A stretch of DNA of 59,809 nucleotides from a virus (IMGVR_UViG_3300020261_000002:1-59809); one strand, 5' to 3'; positions 1,974 to 34,985 are shown, numbered from the stretch's first letter. Made by a program: numbers and translations. Notes: generated by a model not told the origin, from the letters alone.

Positions 1974-2168
1974 TTATTTCTTTTTACGTTTACGTAATTT
2001 ACTTAGGGTTTTAGCTAAGTTAGCTTGGCGAACTGTACGAGTATCATACTTATCTGGATTAGATGTTACCTTTGATGCAAACTCTTTTACATCCATTCCC
2101 CTTTTCTCTGCTTTCTTTGTAAAAGCACCGGGTCTTTTGATAGCGTCTTTAATCCAGTTATCAGCCAT
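1974..2168 (-). CDS. small basic phage protein
   Basis: WIKDAIKRPGAF...RQANLAKTL pattern of a widespread small basic phage protein family. Confidence 0.7.
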   Translation of the reverse strand: MADNWIKDAIKRPGAFTKKAEKRGMDVKEFASKVTSNPDKYDTRTVRQANLAKTLSKLRKRKKK

Positions 2169-2404: not shown

Positions 2405-4501
2405 CTAATCCATAACATCTGAGATACCTTTTCTTAGATTTCTTTCAGATCTCAACTCATTGAGTAACTTCTGTCTGGCAGCTGGTTGTTCATCTACAGG
2501 TAATCTTGTTATGTCTTGTAAAGCTTGATTTGCTTTCTGTGTAAAGTCTGCACCAAGAGTTTTCTTATCTCCGGGATCAGAAGGTGCTCCTGTTCCTAAA
2601 ACTCCTCCACCTCTAGCAAGAGGTATTCCCTGTGGGTTTCTAGATATCATTTCTTCTCTAGCTGCTCTACCAGATTTAGTTAATTTTCCTGATCTATCTG
2701 TTCTTATATTTGCTATTACCTGTTCGTTTGTTAAACCTCCCATTCCTCTCTGTTCTCTTGGAGTCATTCCTACATTTTTGAAAGGAACGTCTGTTGGTTT
2801 CTTTGATGCTCCCTTAGAATATTCACCTTCTTTACTCATCGCACCACTAACAAACTTACCTAGTTCTCTACCATAAATTCCTGTGCCAGCTTCCCCTGCT
2901 CTTGAATCCTCTTGAGAAGGAGGGTTAACTACTTTTTTAGATGTTCTTCTTACTTGCTCCCTTGTAGGTCCTAGTTCACCAGCTGGTCTTTTTCCTGTAT
3001 ATTGTAAATTTTGTCCTGTAGCTCTTTGACTTAAATCTACAGTAGAAGGTCCGACTATTGCTCCTGGTACATCAGCAGTTTCTCCCTCAACAAGATCTTT
3101 TCGTGTAGGTGTTTCTGTGACATTGACATCCATTAATCTGGCACGACCTTTTATTTCCCTACCAATTGCAGTTTTAGTTCCTGTTTCTAAATTTTTAACA
3201 GACCTCATTTCTTTCATATCTCTTGAGAGAGGTGCTCCACCATCATCTTTACTAGTTGTTGCTGTTTGTATTCCTTTTCCTGTAGTTTGTGCTTGTGAAT
3301 AATCTTGAGTTCTTTCTTCATCAAAAATTTTATCAGCTGCAAAAGATGCATCCTCTGCACTCAATCTTGTTTTAATAGCTGCATCTTGTTTTACTGCTCC
3401 ATGAAATCTTCTAACTAGTCCAGGATTATTTTTATTTAAAACTTTATTAGCAAGTCTTTCTGCACGTCTTTTATCACGATCACTTGCTCCAGAAACATTC
3501 CCCTGTGTTATCTGATTTAGTACTTTTCCATATGTACTATCGAACTCACCTTTATACTCATTAATTGTATTTGCTACACGAGTTTCTTCGTGTACAGCCA
3601 TCTTGGTATCGTGCTTACTTTTTAGAGTAGGTTCACCAATAATTTTATTAACTTTTGGTGTTTTATTATCTGCACTTTGTAGTAATGCTGTATTCTTGAC
3701 ATCCGTTGCTACAGCTTTGGGTTGCTGTGGTCTAGCTCCTGTTTTAATTGATGCAACAAGATTGTCAATTTTACCCATTGTATTTAGTTCATCTCTTGTA
3801 TAAAATTCATCATTTTCTGCAGAAGGTTGAGATGCAACTACTGGTTGATTTGTCTGTGATTTTTGTTTTTCAATTTCATATCTTGCAGCTCTAACACCAC
3901 TCTTATCTACACCATATCTTTCTGCATTAAATTCTTGTAATTTTGCTCGTGCAAGTGCCTTTTCTTTTTCTGCAGGAGATAAATCTCTACCAAGAATTGT
4001 GCCAGGTGCAGGCTTTGTATTATCTGCTTGTTTATAAGCAGCAAAAGCAGGTGTTTCTTGTGCAATAGGTGTAACTTTTTCTTGTTGTAAAGCACTATAA
4101 GCTGCTTCAGATAGAGGTTGCATACCAGCTGAAGACTGTTGTTGTACTGGAGGTGGTGTTATATCACCCTGATTAGGTCTTGTATATGTTTTTGTACGTG
4201 GTTTATCACCTAAATTACGTAAAAATGTAGTTACAGCATCTCTAGTTCCTTGTCTTCTAGCTGCAGCTACTGCACCAGCTACTAAACCAACTCCTAAAGC
4301 TCCAGTTGCTATTTGTTTACCGGAAATATTAACTTTTTCTGCTTTTTCTTCTGATTTTCCCCCTTGTGCCCCTTGTTTATCCATATTTTGGACAAATTTT
4401 TTGACATCAGGACCGACTGCAGCCTTTTCTTTTGCAGTTCTAGGGTATCTATTACCTGTCATCCTCGACCATAAGGAGTAATCTTGCGGAGATATGGGCA
4501 T
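2405..4501 (-). CDS. large low-complexity protein, putative internal virion protein
   Basis: 698 aa, K/Q/A/G-rich, one hydrophobic Gly-rich segment (IATGALGVGLVAGAVAAA). Confidence 0.6.
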   Translation of the reverse strand: MPISPQDYSLWSRMTGNRYPRTAKEKAAVGPDVKKFVQNMDKQGAQGGKSEEKAEKVNISGKQIATGALGVGLVAGAVAAARRQGTRDAVTTFLRNLGDKPRTKTYTRPNQGDITPPPVQQQSSAGMQPLSEAAYSALQQEKVTPIAQETPAFAAYKQADNTKPAPGTILGRDLSPAEKEKALARAKLQEFNAERYGVDKSGVRAARYEIEKQKSQTNQPVVASQPSAENDEFYTRDELNTMGKIDNLVASIKTGARPQQPKAVATDVKNTALLQSADNKTPKVNKIIGEPTLKSKHDTKMAVHEETRVANTINEYKGEFDSTYGKVLNQITQGNVSGASDRDKRRAERLANKVLNKNNPGLVRRFHGAVKQDAAIKTRLSAEDASFAADKIFDEERTQDYSQAQTTGKGIQTATTSKDDGGAPLSRDMKEMRSVKNLETGTKTAIGREIKGRARLMDVNVTETPTRKDLVEGETADVPGAIVGPSTVDLSQRATGQNLQYTGKRPAGELGPTREQVRRTSKKVVNPPSQEDSRAGEAGTGIYGRELGKFVSGAMSKEGEYSKGASKKPTDVPFKNVGMTPREQRGMGGLTNEQVIANIRTDRSGKLTKSGRAAREEMISRNPQGIPLARGGGVLGTGAPSDPGDKKTLGADFTQKANQALQDITRLPVDEQPAARQKLLNELRSERNLRKGISDVMD

Positions 4502-5032
4502 TTACTAGCTAAAAATCTTAGATATAACGATTTTAAGTGGGCTCAACCTATAATCTACCCCCAAAAAGGTCCTTATAACCCTCAAATTGGGGTAAAAATT
4601 AGGAGAGACACTTGGTGTAATACCTACGCAACGACTAGTGCGAGGAAAAAAAAAGAATATATACATATATACTACCTGACTACGTTTGGTTGTTTATTAT
4701 GTGCATTTTCTACCAAATATTAGGGTATTTCCCCTTAATATCCCTCCAATTTCTAATAAGAAGAGGGTTCTCCGCCCGAATCTGCCAGGAGATGAGTCGG
4801 TTATAACTTATCGATTTGGCAAAGGCTGTGGAAACTGAATTTATTTTTAATTCTGTCTACGTTTAATTCTTATTTAACTTCTGTGTAAGTTATTAATCGG
4901 AAGAAACGATAGGTTTTGATGTATTTATTATACACCTCCTGAGCATTGAGGATAAACTGCTTTGTTGTTTACATTAACTACCATGTTAAAACTTCAATTA
5001 ACTATGTTCCTTATCCTAATTCTTATTTGATT
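4502..5032. other. divergent non-coding region between late (-) and early (+) blocks; possible genome end or packaging region
   Basis: No credible ORF, strand switch, short G/C runs and imperfect inverted repeats. Confidence 0.4.
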
Positions 5033-5392
5033 ATGGGCATACGTTTATACCCTTGCACAGATAACACTGCAAACCTTGCAATGCTTATCGATGTGCCACA
5101 GGAGACTTTTGATCGCCTTGACTACATCAAGGAACAATGCCAGGAAGAGAAAGCTGACTGGTATTACGAATACTATGAACGCATCAGTGATGATGAAGAA
5201 CTTCAGAAAGCTGATGACTTCTTAATTTATGGTTGGGGTATCTTTAACTACCCAACTGATTCAGAATATGGTGATACATTTAAGCCTGACTTCGCTTCGA
5301 GGTTGTTTAATTCGGCAACCAAGAAAGATATGTCTAAACACTTATCTGTTGATCAAGTCATTCAATTATCATCTGGACTACGTTGGTGCTAA
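5033..5392 (+). CDS. early hypothetical protein
   Basis: ATG at 5033 within track ORF 4946..5392; first gene of the + block. Confidence 0.7.
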   Translation: MGIRLYPCTDNTANLAMLIDVPQETFDRLDYIKEQCQEEKADWYYEYYERISDDEELQKADDFLIYGWGIFNYPTDSEYGDTFKPDFASRLFNSATKKDMSKHLSVDQVIQLSSGLRWC

Positions 5393-5394
5393 CT

Positions 5395-5718
5395 ATGATT
5401 ACTCCTAAAACTCCTCCAAAGAAATCTGCGACCATCCGTGGATTTCTTTTCAAAACTTTACTTTTTGATGCTGCCATGCGAATCACTCCTCCTCTATCTA
5501 TCTTTGCCTTTGCACTAGCTGGTGCTGCCATTTACAAGGTATCACCTGACAAAGCAAAGAAGACTATCAAATCTACCATGTTAGATCTTAGAAATCAGTT
5601 ATCTGATTGGGTAAAACCAAATGTAGATGATGGATTTACTGAGTCTGACTACGTTTATGAATGTAGTAACGATGATGTGGATGTAGATGATAAATCTTAT
5701 CCTCCAGAAACTGAGTAG
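5395..5718 (+). CDS. early membrane-associated hypothetical protein
   Basis: Hydrophobic segment (PPLSIFAFALAGAAIY) and acidic tail. Confidence 0.65.
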   Translation: MITPKTPPKKSATIRGFLFKTLLFDAAMRITPPLSIFAFALAGAAIYKVSPDKAKKTIKSTMLDLRNQLSDWVKPNVDDGFTESDYVYECSNDDVDVDDKSYPPETE

Positions 5719-5793
5719 GTATTACTCCTACTTGGTGGAAGGTGCAAATCCTTCCATCATCCTTGACCTAGACATGTCACAAAACTGTCCTTT
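5713..5793 (+). ncRNA. structured intergenic leader: hairpin, T-loop-like hairpin and H-type pseudoknot
   Basis: gagtagg/cctactt; tggtggaagg-TGCAAAT-ccttccatca; tgac/gtca stem whose loop gaca can pair with downstream tgtc. Confidence 0.55.
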
Positions 5794-5814
5794 GTACACT
5801 TTATGGAGATTTCC

Positions 5815-6183
5815 ATGCTTAACACAACATTCACTGGTAACATCACTTTCGCAGAAATTGTGGAACAAGATGCCAAGGTAGAAAACCCATTCCTCAAGAT
5901 CGTTGTTGCTGTCAACGACGTGAATGACAATGGACTACGTATTACTGTTCGTACCAAGAATGGTTTACTAGAAGCTGCCCGTAACGGTGAAGATCTAGTC
6001 GGTGCTCGTGTAGTTATCAACGGAACTATAGATATTGCATCTATCCGTTCACACTACGTCGATGACGAAGGTAAGTGTGTAGCACTCAAGCAACCTAACG
6101 CAAGAGTGTATGCAAATTCAATCGAAAGAATGAATCGCAAACCTGCACCTGCCACAGTTCAAACCGAACTAGCTGTCAGCTAA
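5815..6183 (+). CDS. OB-fold single-stranded DNA-binding-like protein
   Basis: SSB-like pattern (NTTFTGNI...LKIVVAVND...VGARVVINGTI); GGAG SD before ATG 5815. Confidence 0.55.
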   Translation: MLNTTFTGNITFAEIVEQDAKVENPFLKIVVAVNDVNDNGLRITVRTKNGLLEAARNGEDLVGARVVINGTIDIASIRSHYVDDEGKCVALKQPNARVYANSIERMNRKPAPATVQTELAVS

Positions 6184-6248
6184 CTGACGAAACTCTCCTT
6201 CGGGAGAGTCGACGGGAGATGACCTACCCGTCCTGAAGAGTCAGGTCA
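6184..6248 (+). ncRNA. type II hammerhead ribozyme with pseudoknot
   Basis: P2 ctgac/gtcag, GAAA, P3 ctctcc-ttcg-ggagag, GUC site, P1 gacggg/cccgtc, CUGAAGA core; L1 tgacc pairs with 3' tail ggtca. Confidence 0.93.
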
Positions 6249-6274
6249 CAACTGTCCTTTATGGAGATTTTTCC

Positions 6275-6430
6275 ATGCTTAACACAAGACTACTAACTAC
6301 CCAAGCCCAGTACAAATACACCAGGCTTGAAACTGCTGGTCCTAAACCAAACCAGTCAGTCGGTTCTTACATCAAAGAACAGACGCAGCCAAATGACTAT
6401 TGGCAAATGTTCTATGGATACAGAGGCTAA
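6275..6430 (+). CDS. 51 aa hypothetical protein downstream of the ribozyme
   Basis: Own translation MLNTRLLTTQAQYKY...; GGAG SD; TAATG coupling to the next gene. Confidence 0.6.
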   Translation: MLNTRLLTTQAQYKYTRLETAGPKPNQSVGSYIKEQTQPNDYWQMFYGYRG

Positions 6431-6672
6431 TGACTACCATTCAACCTTGGTTGTATCCAAACAACCCTTCTGTAGATCGGATTGTATACATTCCTCTACA
6501 ATCTGCTCATATCCTTGAGTATCAAGAAGAAATGATTGATGCTGAAGGTAATGTCTACTGGAAGACTGTGGACTCCACCACAATCGGAGGAGCTACATCT
6601 GTAAAAGAATTTCTTGAACAGATGAAAGACTTCTATGAATCTAAATCCTGTCGTAAAGATAGGATGATGTGA
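6430..6672 (+). CDS. early hypothetical protein
   Basis: ATG overlapping upstream stop, inside track ORF 6400..6672. Confidence 0.65.
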   Translation: MTTIQPWLYPNNPSVDRIVYIPLQSAHILEYQEEMIDAEGNVYWKTVDSTTIGGATSVKEFLEQMKDFYESKSCRKDRMM

Positions 6673-6677
6673 TTCTC

Positions 6678-6717
6678 TCCCTCTGTCTCTTCGGAGGCAG
6701 ACTGAGGGATTCCCTCA
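6678..6717 (+). ncRNA. intergenic UUCG hairpin with alternative pairing
   Basis: tctgtctc-TTCG-gaggcaga (one G-U), closed by tccc/ggga; overlapping palindrome tgaggga-t-tccctca. Confidence 0.5.
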
Positions 6718-6741
6718 TTGTTCTTTACCACCCTAACTACC

Positions 6742-6972
6742 ATGTGGTCTTCTAAACTTTATCAAAAGTCAGCAAGAGATGCTTGCTTACTAAATATTCG
6801 CAATGACTTTGCAGAATTAATTATGGTTGATCCTGTTTCAGGTAACAGTAAACACATCTATTTACATGCACCTTTGAAACTAATCAACAAGAAAGTTGAA
6901 GAACTAAAACAGAAAGGTTATAAAGAGCTAGACTCTATTAATTTATCTTTAAGAGGTCTTGCTGCTGTATGA
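6742..6972 (+). CDS. early hypothetical protein
   Basis: ATG 6742 within track ORF 6718..6972. Confidence 0.65.
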   Translation: MWSSKLYQKSARDACLLNIRNDFAELIMVDPVSGNSKHIYLHAPLKLINKKVEELKQKGYKELDSINLSLRGLAAV

Positions 6973-7169
6973 ATAACCTATCTCCTATCACCCGTGCCTT
7001 CCTAACAGTTGGCATCGGTGTATTTATAGGCATACTACCTGTGTTTATGATCATCAACATGCTATCTACTACAGCTATCAGATTCTGTGGTAGATATGGT
7101 TCTGACTACACCATCGTTAACCTTGATACTCCATTCGGAACTATCAAGAGATGTGTAGCTAAGAACTAA
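6969..7169 (+). CDS. small membrane protein
   Basis: One TM helix, ATGA overlap. Confidence 0.6.
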   Translation: MNNLSPITRAFLTVGIGVFIGILPVFMIINMLSTTAIRFCGRYGSDYTIVNLDTPFGTIKRCVAKN

Positions 7170-7172
7170 ATC

Positions 7173-7428
7173 TCTGGGCAAACTTCAAGAGGTAACAGTA
7201 AGAGCAAATGCTCAACCGTCTGACATAATCCCTCTTGTAAATGTAAGTCCCAGACTACTCCCATCTCTAGTGAAGATTGTTGTAGTGCTCATCTGCAGTC
7301 ATGGATAATGCCTCTGCAGTAACTGACACTAACCTCAACCAATAATCTTTGTAGGTGCAAATCCTCAATGGGAGACTTGGACTATGCAATGATATGAACT
7401 TTGGTAGTTGGTTCGTTGTGTAGTCCAA
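7173..7428 (+). ncRNA. three adjacent structured RNA domains
   Basis: Nested stems 7173-7254; tRNA-like domain 7258-7374; 16-bp G-U-containing hairpin 7377-7428. Confidence 0.6.
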
Positions 7429-7454
7429 CTCTGTCCTTTACTCTTACTATTACC

Positions 7455-7841
7455 ATGACCATGAAAACCTTTTGGGCTTGGAAACATTCCATCAACAGCA
7501 CTGAGGAAAACAAGAGTGGCTATACCAAGATCCTCGCCAGAGATATGAACTCTGCTTACAGAAAAGCCCACAAACATTACAAGCATCACATGTTTAACAG
7601 TGACTTCAACGTCAGTGTGATGAGTGGCGAAACAGATAAACATGGCTATGCAAAAGAAGCACAATACAGTACAGGTAAGTGGACTAGAAAAGCCTGGTCA
7701 ACTTACAAGTATTTCCATAGCTTGGAACCAGAGATACAGGAACGTGTTCACAATCACTACAAAGAATTTGGTGATGACTGGAAAGGTCAAGACAAAACAG
7801 ACCTACGTTTCCTTGTAGCTTTATTAAGACAGGAGAAATAA
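7455..7841 (+). CDS. early hypothetical protein
   Basis: ATG 7455/7461 within track ORF 7401..7841. Confidence 0.7.
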   Translation: MTMKTFWAWKHSINSTEENKSGYTKILARDMNSAYRKAHKHYKHHMFNSDFNVSVMSGETDKHGYAKEAQYSTGKWTRKAWSTYKYFHSLEPEIQERVHNHYKEFGDDWKGQDKTDLRFLVALLRQEK

Positions 7842-7843
7842 TC

Positions 7844-8989
7844 ATGAAGAATAGCAAACCACTTCTTTCAAAGAAGAAGAAAGCTTACCTTGCAGTAACA
7901 CAAAGAGTAAATGAACAACTAAAATCTGAATTTCATATCTCAGATAGTACAGCTCTTGCTATGTATGATAAAGACATTTCTCCTTATGGTTACCATAGTC
8001 ACCAGAACATGTTAATCACAGAAGGATTAGCAAAGTATTTTTTCAACAAACGTGTTACTGAGAAAAACATTACAGATGAAGATGGTAATTTATTAGTAGG
8101 AGAAGGCTTTGGACTACCAGAAACCAATGGTTTATGTCCAAACTTCTATATCACTGATGATCTAGCTAACTCTCTGATAGAAACAGATACACCTAAAGGT
8201 AAATTAGATATCAGTAATGAAGTATTACCTGTAATCAAAGTTATATTTTCTAAAAAGTTTTTTAAATTTTCAAAGATGACCATAACTCAAGTGGATGCTG
8301 GAATAAGAGTCAAAGCATCTGTAAGAGCACCATATGGACCTGATCGTTTTGGAAAAGAAACTCTAGGATCTGACCAGATCAAAGTTACTCATCATGCATA
8401 CATGCCTATGGAATTTTTTATTCCATTAGATGGCAGTGGTCACTGCATGTTATGTGACACAAGAGAATGGTTTAAAAAGCATTTATTACACAGAAATTAT
8501 TTCAAGATAAGATTCTCCACAATGGATGAGGAATATCATCTAAGTCACATTGATTCACATGGCAACATGGATATCAAAGAATTCTTTGGAAGTATGACTC
8601 ATGAGTTTGTAGAAGCAGTTATAGAACAATACATAGAAAATCTACATAAACCCTACCGTTTTGTAGTCAATCTACTTTGTTTAATGACTCAAGAACCAGA
8701 GATTCTTACAGTACAAAACTCTACATCTAAATACACAACAACTAACAGTAAAGGTTTTGATGCTGAAAAGATCAGCAATGTACCTAACGTGCATTGGCTT
8801 GGAGAAAACTTTACAACAAGAGTAGTTAACTCTACTGCTGCTTCAGAAGATACTGAACGCACCAGAGGTAAACCTAAGAAGTCTCACTGGAGACGAGGAC
8901 ACTGGCACACTGTGTTGCAGGGTCCAGGAAGAACACAGAAACAACTCAAATGGTTTAGACCTACATTTATCAGAGGACATGCATCATGA
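7844..8989 (+). CDS. phage protein with C-terminal HWRRGHW motif
   Basis: KSHWRRGHW...W.RP.FI tail typical of a widespread uncharacterised phage family. Confidence 0.75.
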   Translation: MKNSKPLLSKKKKAYLAVTQRVNEQLKSEFHISDSTALAMYDKDISPYGYHSHQNMLITEGLAKYFFNKRVTEKNITDEDGNLLVGEGFGLPETNGLCPNFYITDDLANSLIETDTPKGKLDISNEVLPVIKVIFSKKFFKFSKMTITQVDAGIRVKASVRAPYGPDRFGKETLGSDQIKVTHHAYMPMEFFIPLDGSGHCMLCDTREWFKKHLLHRNYFKIRFSTMDEEYHLSHIDSHGNMDIKEFFGSMTHEFVEAVIEQYIENLHKPYRFVVNLLCLMTQEPEILTVQNSTSKYTTTNSKGFDAEKISNVPNVHWLGENFTTRVVNSTAASEDTERTRGKPKKSHWRRGHWHTVLQGPGRTQKQLKWFRPTFIRGHAS

Positions 8990-9450
8990 CAACTATGTTG
9001 GGACCTACATCTATTGATCATTTTAAAAATCTTCATGATCATTACTTGAAGAAAGAACCTATCGTTCATGCGTATGCAACACCATACCACGATGACCCTG
9101 CTGATAATCCTGCAGCCATGTGGTCTTTTGTCATGCATGAAAAGAGAGACTTGGAGCGTATAGCTTTCAAGACTTACATTCATCCACAAGGTGACTTTTA
9201 TAATGGCTACTATGACATCTGTGACATAGAGAAAGGAACCTTTGACTGTGACAATATGAGGCTAGGAGAAGTGTATCCTGTCATATTATATGCACACCAT
9301 GAAACTATGCTTACTGTTGGCTGTGTAGTAAGGACATCAGATCATCCTGATATAGTCACAGGCGAAGAACAACTTGCTCTCTGGATCTACTATCCAAGTG
9401 CAGAAAACATTGAGTCATTTGACATGGCAAGTGGTCATGTCTATAAGTAG
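8986..9450 (+). CDS. hypothetical protein
   Basis: 154 aa ORF, ATGA overlap. Confidence 0.7.
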   Translation: MTTMLGPTSIDHFKNLHDHYLKKEPIVHAYATPYHDDPADNPAAMWSFVMHEKRDLERIAFKTYIHPQGDFYNGYYDICDIEKGTFDCDNMRLGEVYPVILYAHHETMLTVGCVVRTSDHPDIVTGEEQLALWIYYPSAENIESFDMASGHVYK

Positions 9451-9461
9451 TTAAGAAAAGG

Positions 9462-9540
9462 TAGCAATATTAATTAAAATTATCTATCATAGTTTGTAGA
9501 TGGCTGTACAGAGACTACTTCATGTGGTTTCTCTACAGCC
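9462..9540 (+). promoter_or_regulatory. sigma70-type promoter followed by a 5' hairpin
   Basis: TAGCAA-17-TATCAT (9462-9490); hairpin ggctgta...tacagcc 9502-9540. Confidence 0.5.
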
Positions 9541-11675
9541 TTTCTCAGCTGTGTCCTTTACATTATTATCATGTCAAACTACGACCCTATCACCGGCAAA
9601 GTCGGTAACATCGGACCAAGAACTGTCCAGTCTGTAAACATAGCAACTAACAATGGACCTATTGTTGGAAGAGTATTCAATGCTGCTAACAAACAATCAA
9701 TCAGATTAACCGGTAACAACCTCAGTGCATTGATACAACAATACAGACTAAACAATATAGATATAATTAATTTCTTTAAATAGTTATGTCTACAAAAAAC
9801 ATTACAGTCACTGTGTGTTTTGACGTTGATCTATTTGAATACAATAGATACTTCAAAGTCCGTAAAACAGATGGTGAAGTTATTGCAATTTACGATTTGA
9901 TCTGCACTCAAAGTGACAGATTAAATGAACAAGGTAAACCAGAAAACATTCGTATTTACTTTCCTGAAGAGGAGGAGTCTAAAAATGCTTGACAATCCAC
10001 TACCAGATCAGGTGATGGCTGAGATGGATAAAATAGCACACGCTAGAAACTTTGAAGAAAAGTGTAGAGATGATGCCAAAGAACTATGTGAAGACAACTA
10101 TGTCTTTGATAGTTTGATTGAACACTTTCAAGACTGGTATTTTCTCTATCGTGTAGACCACCCAGAAGATCAACTTGATGGTGACAAAGACCTCATTGAT
10201 TCCTGGTGGGATGAAGAAGGTGATCTTTATGATGACTACATCAGTCCTTATGAAGACTATGATCCTACTCCTAATGGAGATTCACCATACAGTGATGCTG
10301 AATATATTATCACACCAGAAGAACGTAATCGTATGGCTTTCGAAAGTAAAAGAGAGTCACATGGTAGAGGCAATCCTTTTAATTGGTAATTATTATGTCT
10401 GACAAAACTTACAAAACCTACAACGTAGAAGCCAAAGGTACAATCAAACTTTGGATGGATGTTGAAGCTTCATCTCAGGAAGAAGCAGAAGCAATGGCTG
10501 ATCAAGTCAAAGAAAGAATCTATGGAGAGCCAGGTCCCTGGCGACCTCTATATGATGGCTACACTTTAGAAATCACATCTGTTCGACCAGAACCAGATAA
10601 ATCTTGCATGAGACCTTTCATCCCTGGGTTCGATGATTGAACCTAACATGGATCTCCTCGAAGCTATGCGTGTAGAAGCTAATCTCTGCTACGAAAGAGG
10701 AGATGACGAAGATGGTGATGCCCTAGTTAAATCTATCTTCGATCAGATATTTCCTGGACTTGTAGAAGAAGCAAAACGAAATCCTACTTTCATCTATCAA
10801 CTAATCGTTCTCGCAAACACTGAGAAAGATGAGATAAAAGCTACCCATTACAAGTCTATTATCTTGTACTTAAAAGACAACGGAGTTAAATTCTAATGAG
10901 CGTTTCAAACCACTACAGACATGTCAAAGTTCATGAATATGAAACAACACACAGAGACATGCTACGAGCATCTACTGATGAGCTTATCGCCAGAGGTTAT
11001 GCACAAATTCTAGAAGAAGATGAGTTGAAAGTACTAGCTCAGTATCATTACGAAAAGTTCAGAAACTTTATGGCTCCACTATTCAGAGATAAGGATCAAG
11101 ACATAGAAGATGTTGTATCATCTGAGATCACCATACAAATGCCTCCAGTAAACTTACCTGTCAGTAAAAAGTAAGTTAGGATAGAGACAATACAAAAGAA
11201 TAAATGACAGACGCTGATCTATTCAATGATTACTATGACAAACTCTGTTTCATCTATCCTTCCTGGTCTAGTAATCTAATACTTGAAATAGCAGAGTACT
11301 GCTGCACACATTCACAACACACTACCGAATCTGACGAGCTAAAATGGAGAGCCTTGTGCTATCTGAATTCTAAGAAAGAAGAGGAGGCAAGTTATTAATT
11401 TATCTGTGAGGTTTTTATGGTCAAGAAACTTGGTAAGCGATACCGGCAAACCAAGCAAGCAATTTATACAGCATATGACATTATTTCTCTGATAGTTATC
11501 TTACTCAGCTTTGATAAACTACTTACTTCCAAGTCAAGATCTGTTGAACCCAGACAGGTTGCCAGACTAATCGAGAAGCTTCCAAAGATTAAGAAGATTC
11601 TGTATGATTCAGCACCCTGGTGGGCATTCGACGACATGGATGTGAAGTCTAAATAAAACTTTACAATCTAAACTA

Positions 11676-12537: not shown

Positions 12538-13672
12538 GCTGCAACAGTGAACCTGTTAACTATGTGTTTAACAATGATTTCGTGTTTAATAATTACAGAG
12601 AACTCTGTGCCATGTTGAAAGAATTGAAGGAACAAAATCTTGTCAGATATGATATGTCTCTTACTGAATTTTCAGAAGAATGTTTTAGCTTGGGGTTGAA
12701 CGAATACCGAAAGAAGTTATATTACTACAGTACTGATTTTCGCTAACTAATTTAATTACCATGAGTCAAAACGACCAAGTACCTGCTGGTACAGAAAATT
12801 ATCCTGTCAACAATTACATCCCTAAATCAAATCCAAATAGTAGACCAAAGAAGTTTACTAAGTATGCCTACGTCATAAAGAACCAGGTGGTATGGGACAG
12901 GATGCGTAAAAAGTATGTGGTTCTGGAAGGCAAAGGTCAACCAGAAACACAACCAATACCATTGCTTCATAAGGATAATCGAAAAGCTTATGAAGATGCA
13001 TGTGATGTTTGTGGCTGGAATTTTAAAAATAAGGAAGCCAGAACATTGTATGTGACTGATGGTACTTACATTAGTCCAACTGCAATTAAACGAATGAGGG
13101 AACTACCATGACCGATTGGTTAGAACAAAGTCTTATCGACATAGGACTAGGCTATAAAGAATCCTATGACAGTTATGTATCATATGGTTTGACAGCTAGA
13201 TCTTATACCAAACAGAAATACAGAAAGAAGTATTACTCTTGGCTACAAGTTGGAAAAGAATTAAAGGGAGGAGTCTTTGAAGAAGGCTCCTTTTCTACAT
13301 GGCCAAAGCGTTTGTTAAAAAGTAAAACAAACCAAAAGAATCAAGCAGAAAAAGAAGCAATGAAACATTTTTCTGTTTATCACATCAATAAATACAGGAC
13401 TCTTTGCACAGAACAAGAAGAGATACCTGTTAAACACAGACAAAAAAAGAGCCAGGCTACCACCCCTGACTCTTAGTTGTGTACCACTGTACTGTCCTTT
13501 GCACATGGAAACTAACTCATTATCAACTTCTCCTCATCCAAAAGAAGCTATTAGTTCCTTATAAATAGTAGTATCAAAATACTCTTTTTGTAAAGTTTGT
13601 GTATTTCAACAAATAAGTTGAAACCTCCACCATACTTGGTAGTCTTTCCCTTAGATCTATCTTCCAAACACT

Positions 13673-14085: not shown

Positions 14086-14136
14086 AATACTCCTTTCGTA
14101 TCTCTTACTACAAAATAGTAGGAGATTTTTTTATTT

Positions 14137-17499: not shown

Positions 17500-17699
17500 A
17501 CCAAGAGTAAAATGATTACATATCGAAGTATATGTAATGGGTAAGAAATTAGTAAGAGCGAAAAAGTTATATTATTTAATTCTTGATGATGAATCTAAAT
17601 ATTGTTTATTAAAGTTAGATATAGCTTCTAAAGACTATGTAGAACTTGATCATGACTTAGATCTCTTTGCACTTAGCAGACTTTTATTTCAACAGGACA

Positions 17700-18638
17700 A
17701 TGACAGCTACCACAAAATCCCAAACAAAAAAGAGTAAGCTCGACAGACTACCAGAAGATATGCAAAATCTTCTGTGTGATGGCATCTCAAAAGCCATGCA
17801 AAACTGGGGAGGATTTCTGAAGATGTCTCAGAAATTTACTACTTACAGTTTCAACAACACCATGTTGATCTGGATGCAACAACTACAACGTGAGTTAGAA
17901 CCCAGCTCACAGGTTGCAGGTTACAAATCTTGGCAAACTAAATTTAAACGTCAAGTCAAAAAGGGTGCCAAGTGTTACAGAATACTTGCACCTAGACCCA
18001 TAAATAAGATGGGTGAAGATGGTAAACCTATCCTCAATAAAGATGGTAAACCAATGATCAACTTCATGATGTTCGTCGGTGTAAAAGTATTTGACTATCG
18101 TGATACAGAAGGTGAACCATTACCAGAAAAACCAGATACATCACACGTTATGAAAAACTTAGAAGGAGATGCAATGCCTGGACTTCTACAGGGTCTGTGC
18201 AAGGTTGCAGAGGCTCGTAAAGTGAAGTTACTTCGCAATGTATCTGAAGCAGAAATGGATGGTGCTCATGGCCGTTGTTGGTTCACTGGAGAGAATGGTA
18301 AAGCAAGTAAGATCGAACTCAAAGAAGGTCTTAGTATTCTCTCTGAGATACATACCCTTGCACATGAACTTGGTCATGCAATACTCCACAATCGTGATGA
18401 GTATCTAGAGCATGACACATCATCCATCAAAGAGTTGGAAGCAGAGTCAGTTGCTATGCTAGTCTGCAACTCTTATGACATCGATACATGTAAATGTAGT
18501 TTCGATTACATCATTGGTCACAACACCAGGAACAAAGATGTTCAGGAAAGTATGCTGACTGCTGGTGATCGTATCTACAAAGCTCACAAAGAAATTACAG
18601 CTATCGTTGATGAACATCTCAAGGAGGTATCCAAATGA
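17700..18638 (+). CDS. ArdC-like ssDNA-binding domain fused to a zincin metallopeptidase-like domain
   Basis: YSFNNTMLIWMQ, VAGYKSW, RQVKKG, VFD..DTEG; C-terminal HELGH...ELEAESVA. Confidence 0.8.
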   Translation: MTATTKSQTKKSKLDRLPEDMQNLLCDGISKAMQNWGGFLKMSQKFTTYSFNNTMLIWMQQLQRELEPSSQVAGYKSWQTKFKRQVKKGAKCYRILAPRPINKMGEDGKPILNKDGKPMINFMMFVGVKVFDYRDTEGEPLPEKPDTSHVMKNLEGDAMPGLLQGLCKVAEARKVKLLRNVSEAEMDGAHGRCWFTGENGKASKIELKEGLSILSEIHTLAHELGHAILHNRDEYLEHDTSSIKELEAESVAMLVCNSYDIDTCKCSFDYIIGHNTRNKDVQESMLTAGDRIYKAHKEITAIVDEHLKEVSK

Positions 18639-34688: not shown

Positions 34689-34793
34689 TAAAGTTTATTT
34701 ATGCTGACAATAAAGAATATTAATAAGTATTTATTACTAGTTGTAGGTATTAATGACTTTAAAATATTAAGGAAACCTAAACTCATCCTTTTA

Positions 34794-34985
34794 ATGACAC
34801 AAGTTACAGAAAGTGGGGGTCGTCAAAACATTTATAGTATTGAACCCAGACCACAAGTTGATCCTAATTATGTAGGCTATCCAGAGGATGCCGAGAAAGT
34901 TAATGGTAGATGGGCAATGCTTGGCATTGTTGCTCTATTTGGTGCTTATGCAACAACAGGTCAAATTATTCCAGGTATATTCTAA
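34794..34985 (+). CDS. hli: high-light-inducible protein
   Basis: AEKVNGRWAMLG...TGQIIPGIF. Confidence 0.95.
   Translation: MTQVTESGGRQNIYSIEPRPQVDPNYVGYPEDAEKVNGRWAMLGIVALFGAYATTGQIIPGIF

Follow-up and report, generated by a model that had tools for sequence, protein, structure and literature searches.

An array of exchangeable intercistronic RNA modules among the early genes of an IMG/VR phage

The locus

The stretch of DNA analyzed here, called the window, is the whole IMG/VR record IMGVR_UViG_3300020261_000002:1-59809 of an uncultured marine phage (59.8 kb, or 59,809 nucleotides [nt]; completeness estimate 70%). It contains a run of small rightward early genes in which five gaps each hold an RNA structure, then a short G-poor motif, TGTYCTTT, and then a start codon. 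From the 5′ side, the structures are element 1, a hammerhead, and elements 3, 4, and 5 (Table 1). The five-element region gives no family match in the Pfam and PHROGs scans. A preliminary description, made from the sequence alone, had placed structured elements in these five gaps, one of them a hammerhead, and had proposed that each is followed by TGTYCTTT and a start codon. All five are found, the hammerhead included, and the order of structure, motif, and start codon holds for each. The five gaps form a real modular array of intercistronic RNA modules.

The preference for + strand RNA is also borne out in four of the five elements, which fold better than shuffled sequences on the + strand and less so on the - strand (z-scores in Table 1, against 200 shuffles, each strand separately); the hammerhead stretch gives no contrast, its fold energy being unremarkable on both. 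Because of covariation and G-U pairs, action as + strand RNA is supported for the hammerhead and element 3 and, more weakly, for elements 4 and 5.

A type II hammerhead between two early genes

The Rfam model Hammerhead_II (RF02276) matches 6185-6250 with 37.5 bits, against a gathering score of 37. All parts of the conserved core are present: CTGAAGA (for CUGANGA), GAAA, and, as cleavage triplet, GTC (6208-6210), whose last base is not G. In the six sequences aligned, 126/126 cells pair (31-51% in slid controls) and both partners have changed in four of the 21 pairs, with stems I, II, and III all represented. The pseudoknot between loop I and the 3′ tail, a contact described for type II hammerheads in passages of Perreault et al. 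(2011; PMC3088659), has four pairs that are invariant in 6/6 sequences and that, therefore, neither add to nor remove from the covariation support.

Homologs occur in the same kind of gap in other contigs (relatives and loci are designated by L and a number). The hammerhead of L091, a 92%-identical relative, is identical to that of the window (37.5 bits); those of L181, L186, and L187 score 35.7 bits, that of L167 31.8 bits, and those of L106, L110, and L119 29.3-30.9 bits. In one metatranscriptome contig, single-base losses at 6196 and 6205 remove both partners of one stem III pair. From family membership, we infer that the hammerhead self-cleaves between 6210 and 6211; each product would then keep a hairpin at its new end, stem III for the upstream RNA (3′) and stem I for the downstream RNA (5′).

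A three-strand motif with two competing helices

Element 3, which the preliminary description placed at 6678-6717, is here delimited to 6671-6716. Its 5′ strand and a purine strand, GAGGGA, form the helix P1 around a second helix, P2, and the same purine strand can pair with a downstream pyrimidine strand in P3. The pattern of the two core strands is found in 23 stretches of 21 viral contigs, and there are 33 non-identical copies once other loci are added. A covariance model gives 40 matches in 26 sources, divergent copies included, with at most three per contig; viral copies reach 24-73 bits on the sense strand and at most 20 on the reverse strand.

In P1 and P2, 97.4% of 607 cells pair, versus 34-58% in slid controls, and 11 of the 16 pairs have changed on both sides. 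A downstream complement of the purine strand is present in 39/39 copies (within 8 nt in 34), and in 4.1% of random windows. In five copies, the best-scoring complement is 56-71 nt away. In four of these the intervening sequence closes on itself, the inserts of 56-67 nt between the purine strand and the 3′ complement being hairpins in their own right, while the fifth (L173-1546) has no insert and offers, by eye, a nearer complement containing G-U pairs. In divergent copies (L169-1902 and L170-1890, on near-identical contigs, and L183-1876), GAGGGA is altered together with both the matching 5′ strand and the downstream pyrimidine strand. The purine strand co-varies with both pyrimidine strands; thus, one strand has two partners, in helices that are mutually exclusive. 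Across the copies compared, these changes show two competing helices in element 3, both backed by covariation. The computed energies are -22.0 kcal/mol for P1 with P2 and -18.6 kcal/mol for P2 with P3 when the 5′ strand is blocked.

Three other readings of the region were rejected. A triple helix does not fit, as both pyrimidine strands are antiparallel to the purine strand and the changes follow a Watson–Crick register. A start at TTG 6718 served by GAGGGA was discarded because the frame is not kept in L181, and small open reading frames (ORFs) inside element 3 or 4 because a 49-nt insertion or deletion shifts the frame and the reading frames are not conserved.

The preceding stop codon overlaps the first two bases of the motif in 14/33 copies, and in another 12 it is 5-45 nt upstream; L169 has a run of three consecutive genes that all end at a copy. 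From the stop codon on, 43 bases are 86-91% identical in contigs in which a 381-residue protein of the region is only ~48% identical. Copies between small genes also lie behind a tRNA-Asp (GTC) gene, on its strand, in five loci (one in L178, two in L173 and L183, three in L169 and L170), and copies co-occur with hammerheads on the L181/L186 and L167 contigs. L181 and L091 have a divergent copy before the first early gene, where the window has none.

Element 3 might itself be a self-cleaving ribozyme of a new class that does the job of the hammerhead, a possibility to which we assign a slim chance. It takes the place of other modules in arrays with hammerheads and tRNA genes; its core, including the unpaired 2×2 loop, is strongly conserved beside a freely varying hairpin; and among 40 places matching the core pattern in the species genome collection none is a true copy (none exceeds 18.5 bits with the covariance model), the 40 being, by our estimate, about what chance would give. 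The conservation of the core is, however, well enough explained by a purine strand that must fit two partners, and no tertiary contact or pseudoknot is seen that could coexist with P1. Element 3 has no match in Rfam 15, ribozyme models included, and no RNA end is seen in assembled contigs, which cannot show ends. More generally, the suggestion that the unassigned elements are candidates for further self-cleaving RNAs gained no support: they give no sign of catalysis, and twister, twister-sister, pistol, hatchet, HDV-like, and the other ribozyme families of Rfam 15 have no match at E ≤ 10 in 4400-10000, 5695-5800, or 7160-7445, apart from Hammerhead_II itself.

The two helices could also be those of an attenuator, a reading of element 3, and perhaps of other elements, that we regard as unlikely. 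P3 and the U-rich tract behind it would constitute a small intrinsic terminator and P1 an anti-terminator, and the choice between the folds would be made by a phage factor or by a ribosome at the overlapping stop codon. The helices are indeed mutually exclusive and both co-vary, the stop codon overlap is frequent, and many copies have, by eye, a U-rich stretch of 10 nt after the 3′ strand; 6703-6717 with TTGTTCTTTA is the one place within the gaps flagged as terminator-like by the scan. But the P3 stem has just 5-6 pairs, several copies (among them those of the L105, L106, and L125 clade and of L167) have no U tract, and the terminator-like sites of the region are no more numerous than in shuffles (six vs. 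5.3 ± 2.7). Moreover, the same leader motif stands behind the hammerhead and behind hairpins lacking a P3-like stem, and P1 with P2 is both more stable and made first.

Table 1. Coordinates of the RNA modules, their parts, and the associated signals in the window
Feature	Position	Strand	Remarks
Element 1, hairpin A	5713-5733	+	7 pairs, 7-nt loop; element 1 (5713-5758), z -2.53 on +, -1.24 on -
Element 1, hairpin B	5734-5758	+	directly behind A; 9 pairs, 7-nt loop TGCAAAT
Leader motif TGTCCTTT	5786-5793	+	start codon 5815 with GGAG Shine–Dalgarno
Type II hammerhead	6184-6250	+	Rfam model, covariation in 6 sequences; z -1.52 on +, -1.65 on -
Hammerhead stem II	6184-6188 with 6240-6244	+	starts one base past the stop codon of the preceding gene
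Hammerhead GAAA	6189-6192	+	
Hammerhead stem III	6192-6209	+	UUCG loop
Hammerhead predicted cut	between C6210 and G6211	+	
Hammerhead stem I	6211-6216 with 6227-6232	+	
Hammerhead core CTGAAGA	6233-6239	+	
Hammerhead pseudoknot	loop I 6220-6223 with 3′ tail 6245-6248	+	
Leader motif TGTCCTTT	6253-6260	+	start codon 6275 with GGAG
Stop codon TGA of preceding gene	6670-6672	+	overlaps first two bases of element 3
Element 3, three-strand motif	6671-6716	+	hairpin with UUCG loop, G-U pairs; z -2.91 on +, -0.39 on -
Element 3 P1, 5′ strand	6671-6679	+	
Element 3 internal loop	6680-6681 with 6702-6703	+	2×2, all-pyrimidine
Element 3 P2	6682-6689 with 6694-6701	+	UUCG loop
Element 3 purine strand GAGGGA	6704-6709	+	
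Element 3 P3, 3′ strand CCCTC	6712-6716	+	
Leader motif TGTTCTTT	6719-6726	+	TGTCCTTT in L091 and L124; start codon 6742, no Shine–Dalgarno
Element 4, three domains	7173-7428	+	z -4.21 on +, -2.18 on -
Element 4 domain 1	7173-7254	+	conserved closing stem, hypervariable interior
Element 4 domain 2	7258-7375	+	49-nt insert 7283-7331; TGCAAAT-loop hairpin 7349-7368
Element 4 domain 3	7377-7428	+	almost invariant hairpin, ~22 pairs
Leader motif TGTCCTTT	7432-7439	+	start codon 7455, no Shine–Dalgarno
Candidate sigma-70-type promoter (TAGCAA, 17 nt, TATCAT)	9462-9490	+	putative, picked by eye
Element 5 hairpin	9502-9540	+	16 pairs, central C-C mismatch; z -4.46 on +, -1.83 on -
Leader motif TGTCCTTT	9552-9559	+	start codon 9571, no Shine–Dalgarno
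TGTCCTTT, sixth + strand copy	13493-13500	+	outside the five-element array, behind hairpin 13447-13474, before a 19-codon ATG frame

Exchange of modules between relatives

Comparison of the aligned contigs indicates that relatives exchange RNA modules at the same site. In L181, which is syntenic with the window, a copy of element 3 occupies the place of element 1, and the gene beside it is unrelated up to the last six codons before the hammerhead. The 49-nt insert found in domain 2 of element 4 sits in domain 1 in L091. Gain, loss, or replacement of genes between close relatives is associated with the modules.

This association, known for the promoter-bearing stem-loop cassettes (PeSLs) described in T4-like phages (PMC4122927), allows for another explanation. 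The modules would be mobile units of stem-loop and promoter, with their own transcript starts, whose sequence likeness drives recombination and gene shuffling. The exchange of modules together with adjacent genes speaks for it, as do a repeat of ~30 nt that includes the first codons (MLNT) of two neighboring genes (5799-5827 and 6257-6287) and a conserved AT-rich block before element 5. The block, 40 nt long, is nearly invariant while the genes upstream differ, and holds promoter-like hexamers, from which the promoter scan picked a pair (9451-9480) other than the one in Table 1. Against it, the scan finds no sigma-70-like site within gaps 1-4, and fewer promoter-like sites in the region than in shuffles (24 vs. 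32.5 ± 6.0). The hammerhead and element 3 begin at a stop codon, which leaves no room for a promoter, and the covariation and G-U pairs indicate selection on RNA, not on DNA. We consider PeSL-like cassettes improbable as an account of the array.

Two further observations concern copying and gaps. Together with the ~30-nt repeat, a likeness of part of gap 1 to the 3′ half of the hammerhead is a trace of copying from module to module. In the sister clade, a conserved 86-nt gap without a gene (L106 456-541, L110 715-800, L119 677-762) may be another module; at the same place, L167 840-887 (-) weakly resembles mascRNA, a tRNA-like family (26 bits, E 0.39).

Elements 1, 4, and 5

Covariation is modest in elements 4 and 5 and missing from element 1. 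In element 4, there is one compensatory change in the closing stem of domain 1, whose interior is quite different in each relative, and one in the TGCAAAT-loop hairpin of domain 2. A pattern search for element 4 finds two contigs, both already known; in L092, an extra hairpin lies ahead of the leader motif behind it. In element 5, 64/64 cells pair, with one compensatory and three wobble-keeping changes. The aligned relatives thus lend modest comparative support to elements 4 and 5.

Element 1 shows no covariation because the sole relative that covers it, L091, is identical there. Neither Rfam, the tRNA clan included, in 5695-5800 nor ARAGORN recognizes it as tRNA-like, the latter finding no tRNA gene in the whole window. 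Hairpins with a TGCAAAT loop occur elsewhere at chance level (10/271 sites). A pattern joining the loop of element 1 to the leader motif matched only an unrelated phage, L003, and was set aside as chance; there, at 2030-2060 (-), a TGCAAAT-loop hairpin is followed by a terminator containing TGTCCTTT, upstream of terminase genes.

The leader motif

TGTYCTTT occurs 19 times on the two strands of the window, against 8.88 ± 2.62 expected, and none of 100 shuffles reached 19. Six of the eight + strand copies lie in gaps just upstream of an ATG (Table 1), and 5/5 exact copies of TGTCCTTT on that strand lie in gaps. The leaders are G-poor, and three of the five have no Shine–Dalgarno sequence, while other genes of the window have one. 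In close relatives, TGTCCTTTAC is kept; other relatives vary it (for example, TTGTTGTTTAC and TTGTTCTTTAT). The L106 clade has an unrelated A/T/C motif instead, behind its hammerhead, its element 3, and a hairpin. As this sister clade has a different motif in the same place, TGTYCTTT is, on the contigs compared, a lineage-specific, G-poor leader motif and not a general signal. The variant TTGTTGTTTAC is also present at 4960-4985, with a conserved 15-codon ORF, upstream of the first early gene. Two terminator-like hairpins lie downstream: a strong one with a T run at 14100-14126 (+), which may close the early unit, and one at 13447-13474 (-), with no clear - strand gene adjoining.

TGTYCTTT shares a pyrimidine-CTTT core with boxA, and it might be conceived as a boxA-like loading site for NusB/NusE, so that hairpin and motif would be a nut-like antitermination site; we hold this to be very improbable. 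The order of hairpin and motif is that of rrn leaders, and the aligned Cyanobiaceae leaders have a conserved hairpin followed by their own boxA-like block, with the pyrimidine-CTTT core. That core is all they share with TGTYCTTT: the motif TGT[CT]CTTT is in 0/10 rrn leaders and 0/10 spacers of Cyanobiaceae, a comparison in which the host assignment is only a lead, and an identity with the rrn boxA of Cyanobiaceae was rejected on these 20 sequences. The unrelated motif of the sister clade and the variants of other relatives also argue against it. To our knowledge, there is no precedent for six boxA-like sites within 8 kb, which likewise counts against this reading.

Gene content of the window

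The Pfam and PHROGs scans identify a family A DNA polymerase, a primase-polymerase/D5 helicase, SSB, and a lysozyme, as well as a 2OG-Fe(II) oxygenase, tail fiber proteins, and a tail assembly chaperone. No RNA-processing enzyme is found among 100 ORFs compared with Pfam or 32 compared with PHROGs. Among cultured phages, Synechococcus phage S-EIVl has the primase closest to that of the window (34% identity, 98% of the length), and a 94-residue ORF at 34701-34985 (+) matches the chlorophyll a/b-binding family below threshold (19.2 bits vs. 22.3), a family that cyanophage hli genes also match. Because of these two likenesses, the second one weak, a cyanobacterial host is taken as a lead, not as a result.

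Another sub-threshold match is that of a 116-residue ORF at 12761-13111 (+) to the metallo-beta-lactamase fold (20.7 bits vs. 27), which includes RNA nucleases. An ORF at 17667-18638 (+) has an ArdC N-terminal domain and, just below cut-off (21.2 bits vs. 22), a match to an M78 peptidase domain, a pairing as in anti-restriction proteins. The 381-residue protein (7844-8989, +), of unassigned function, has 146 relatives, many marked PF26125 in the database; it gives no match in the local Pfam scan. Its C-terminal 110 residues, with HWRRGHW, are common across marine viral contigs. Among cultured phages, a DNA search with window 5300-9700 and a protein search with this gene product returned no match. 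Searches for loci with single proteins gave no locus in one case and one uninformative locus in the other (L004 ends at window 5134).

A proposed mechanism for the array

In the best explanation, to which we give about an even chance, the modules punctuate long early RNAs and can be exchanged for one another. The rightward early genes (~4.9 to 14 kb) would be read as long transcripts in which each gap carries a cis-acting module of this kind: first a structure beginning at the stop codon or beside it, then a U/C-rich leader poor in G (TGTCCTTTAC here), and lastly the next start codon. At the hammerhead, self-cutting between 6210 and 6211 would leave an upstream RNA ending in the stem III hairpin and a downstream RNA beginning with the stem I hairpin. 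Element 3 would fold first as the long hairpin of P1 and P2. Upon removal of its 5′ strand, the purine strand would re-pair with the downstream CCCTC, so that P3 would become a small hairpin at the head of the next message, mirroring the product ends of the hammerhead. An endonuclease might remove the 5′ strand by cutting within the internal loop, which is all pyrimidine, in the manner of T7 RNase III sites, or a ribosome positioned on the overlapping stop codon might cover it; for element 3, we infer both the trigger and the cut. Elements 1, 4, and 5 may be end-protecting or nuclease-site hairpins, and a promoter of its own probably starts a transcript with element 5 at the 5′ end. The leader motif would be a translation initiation region without a Shine–Dalgarno sequence, kept alike by copying between modules.

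Several observations weigh against this explanation. The hammerhead is 0.5 bits above threshold, its distant and sister-clade copies fall below it, and the latter bear, by eye, one extra base past the core. Element 1 is without comparative support, and element 5 is represented by four distinct sequences, with a covariation score reached by 88/500 shuffles. Most copies of element 3 were retrieved with a fixed-core pattern and aligned by fitting to the model, which inflates its apparent conservation. L091 is 99-100% identical across 5719-6741, genes and gaps alike, and thus gives no information on selection and no gene–gap contrast. The RNA data are assembled contigs from four metatranscriptome runs of three studies; they cover much of 5.4-7.1 kb and cannot reveal RNA ends, strand, or level. 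Two of them bridge the hammerhead (X16, 6085-6494; X17, 5662-6384), which requires uncut RNA or DNA in the library.

The preliminary description saw in the array a modular system that segments and stabilizes early mRNA. This interpretation is supported in part: a modular array, whose modules relatives exchange, action as + strand RNA, and one bona fide hammerhead are borne out. There is, in addition, an outside chance that the element 3 motif defines a new class of functional RNA in marine phages, acting as a self-cleaving ribozyme or as a ribosome-flipped switch. If it were a switch, a ribosome finishing translation on its first bases would flip it, and, in step with the translation of the preceding gene, either transcription would end or the next message would receive a protective 5′ hairpin.

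Comparison with known systems

Phage transcripts are cut by hammerheads or at RNase III hairpins, and the early genes of T7 are separated by a series of hairpins that RNase III cuts. T7-type sites span roughly two turns of double-stranded RNA, and the cut often falls in an internal loop. Element 3 resembles them in having two stems separated by an unpaired internal loop, where a cut would give the upstream message a 3′ hairpin. It differs in having just 16 pairs (with the 2×2 loop), a strongly conserved sequence, and a second, exclusive helix; cutting by RNase III is proposed by analogy. As for the other helices, domain 3 of element 4 has ~22 pairs and element 5 has 16 with a C-C mismatch.

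The PeSL cassettes of T4-like phages (PMC2839356, PMC4122927) are also short, conserved, and intergenic, with small variable genes and linked gene swaps. Here, in contrast, four of the five gaps are without a near-consensus promoter, the candidate being only before element 5, and the structures are complex co-varying RNAs, one of which is a ribozyme. With tRNA punctuation and the theta ribozymes next to phage tRNAs (PMC10879173), the array shares the use of structured RNAs as cut marks in phage transcripts, and in five loci element 3 arrays come behind a tRNA-Asp gene. Element 3 is, however, not HDV-like and does not adjoin the tRNA; it lies between protein genes.

The array is also comparable to the type II hammerheads that flank genes in phages and prophages (PMC3088659). 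These have the same core, three stems, and pseudoknot between loop I and the 3′ tail, an intergenic site, and a proposed role in cutting long transcripts; several hammerheads flanking prophage genes are read there as transcript processing. Our literature searches on hammerheads or RNase III in cyanophages found no such array described, the hammerhead lists in the supplements of PMC3088659 lying outside the search. Hammerheads between phage genes are already known; a mixed, swappable array and the three-strand motif are not described in Rfam 15 or in the literature searched. That motif, the 6671 type, is the best candidate for closer study: it is short, common in marine viral contigs, foreign to Rfam 15, and endowed with two competing folds. 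It could be a ribozyme, a nuclease site, or a translation-coupled switch, and any such role would provide a new tool and a principle for dividing compact phage operons into messages. Unlike in those type II phage hammerheads, there is here a single hammerhead per array, and the other gaps hold unrelated, mutually replaceable structures; because unrelated RNA structures are interchangeable at the same sites, the arrays supply a natural list of candidates with equivalent function.

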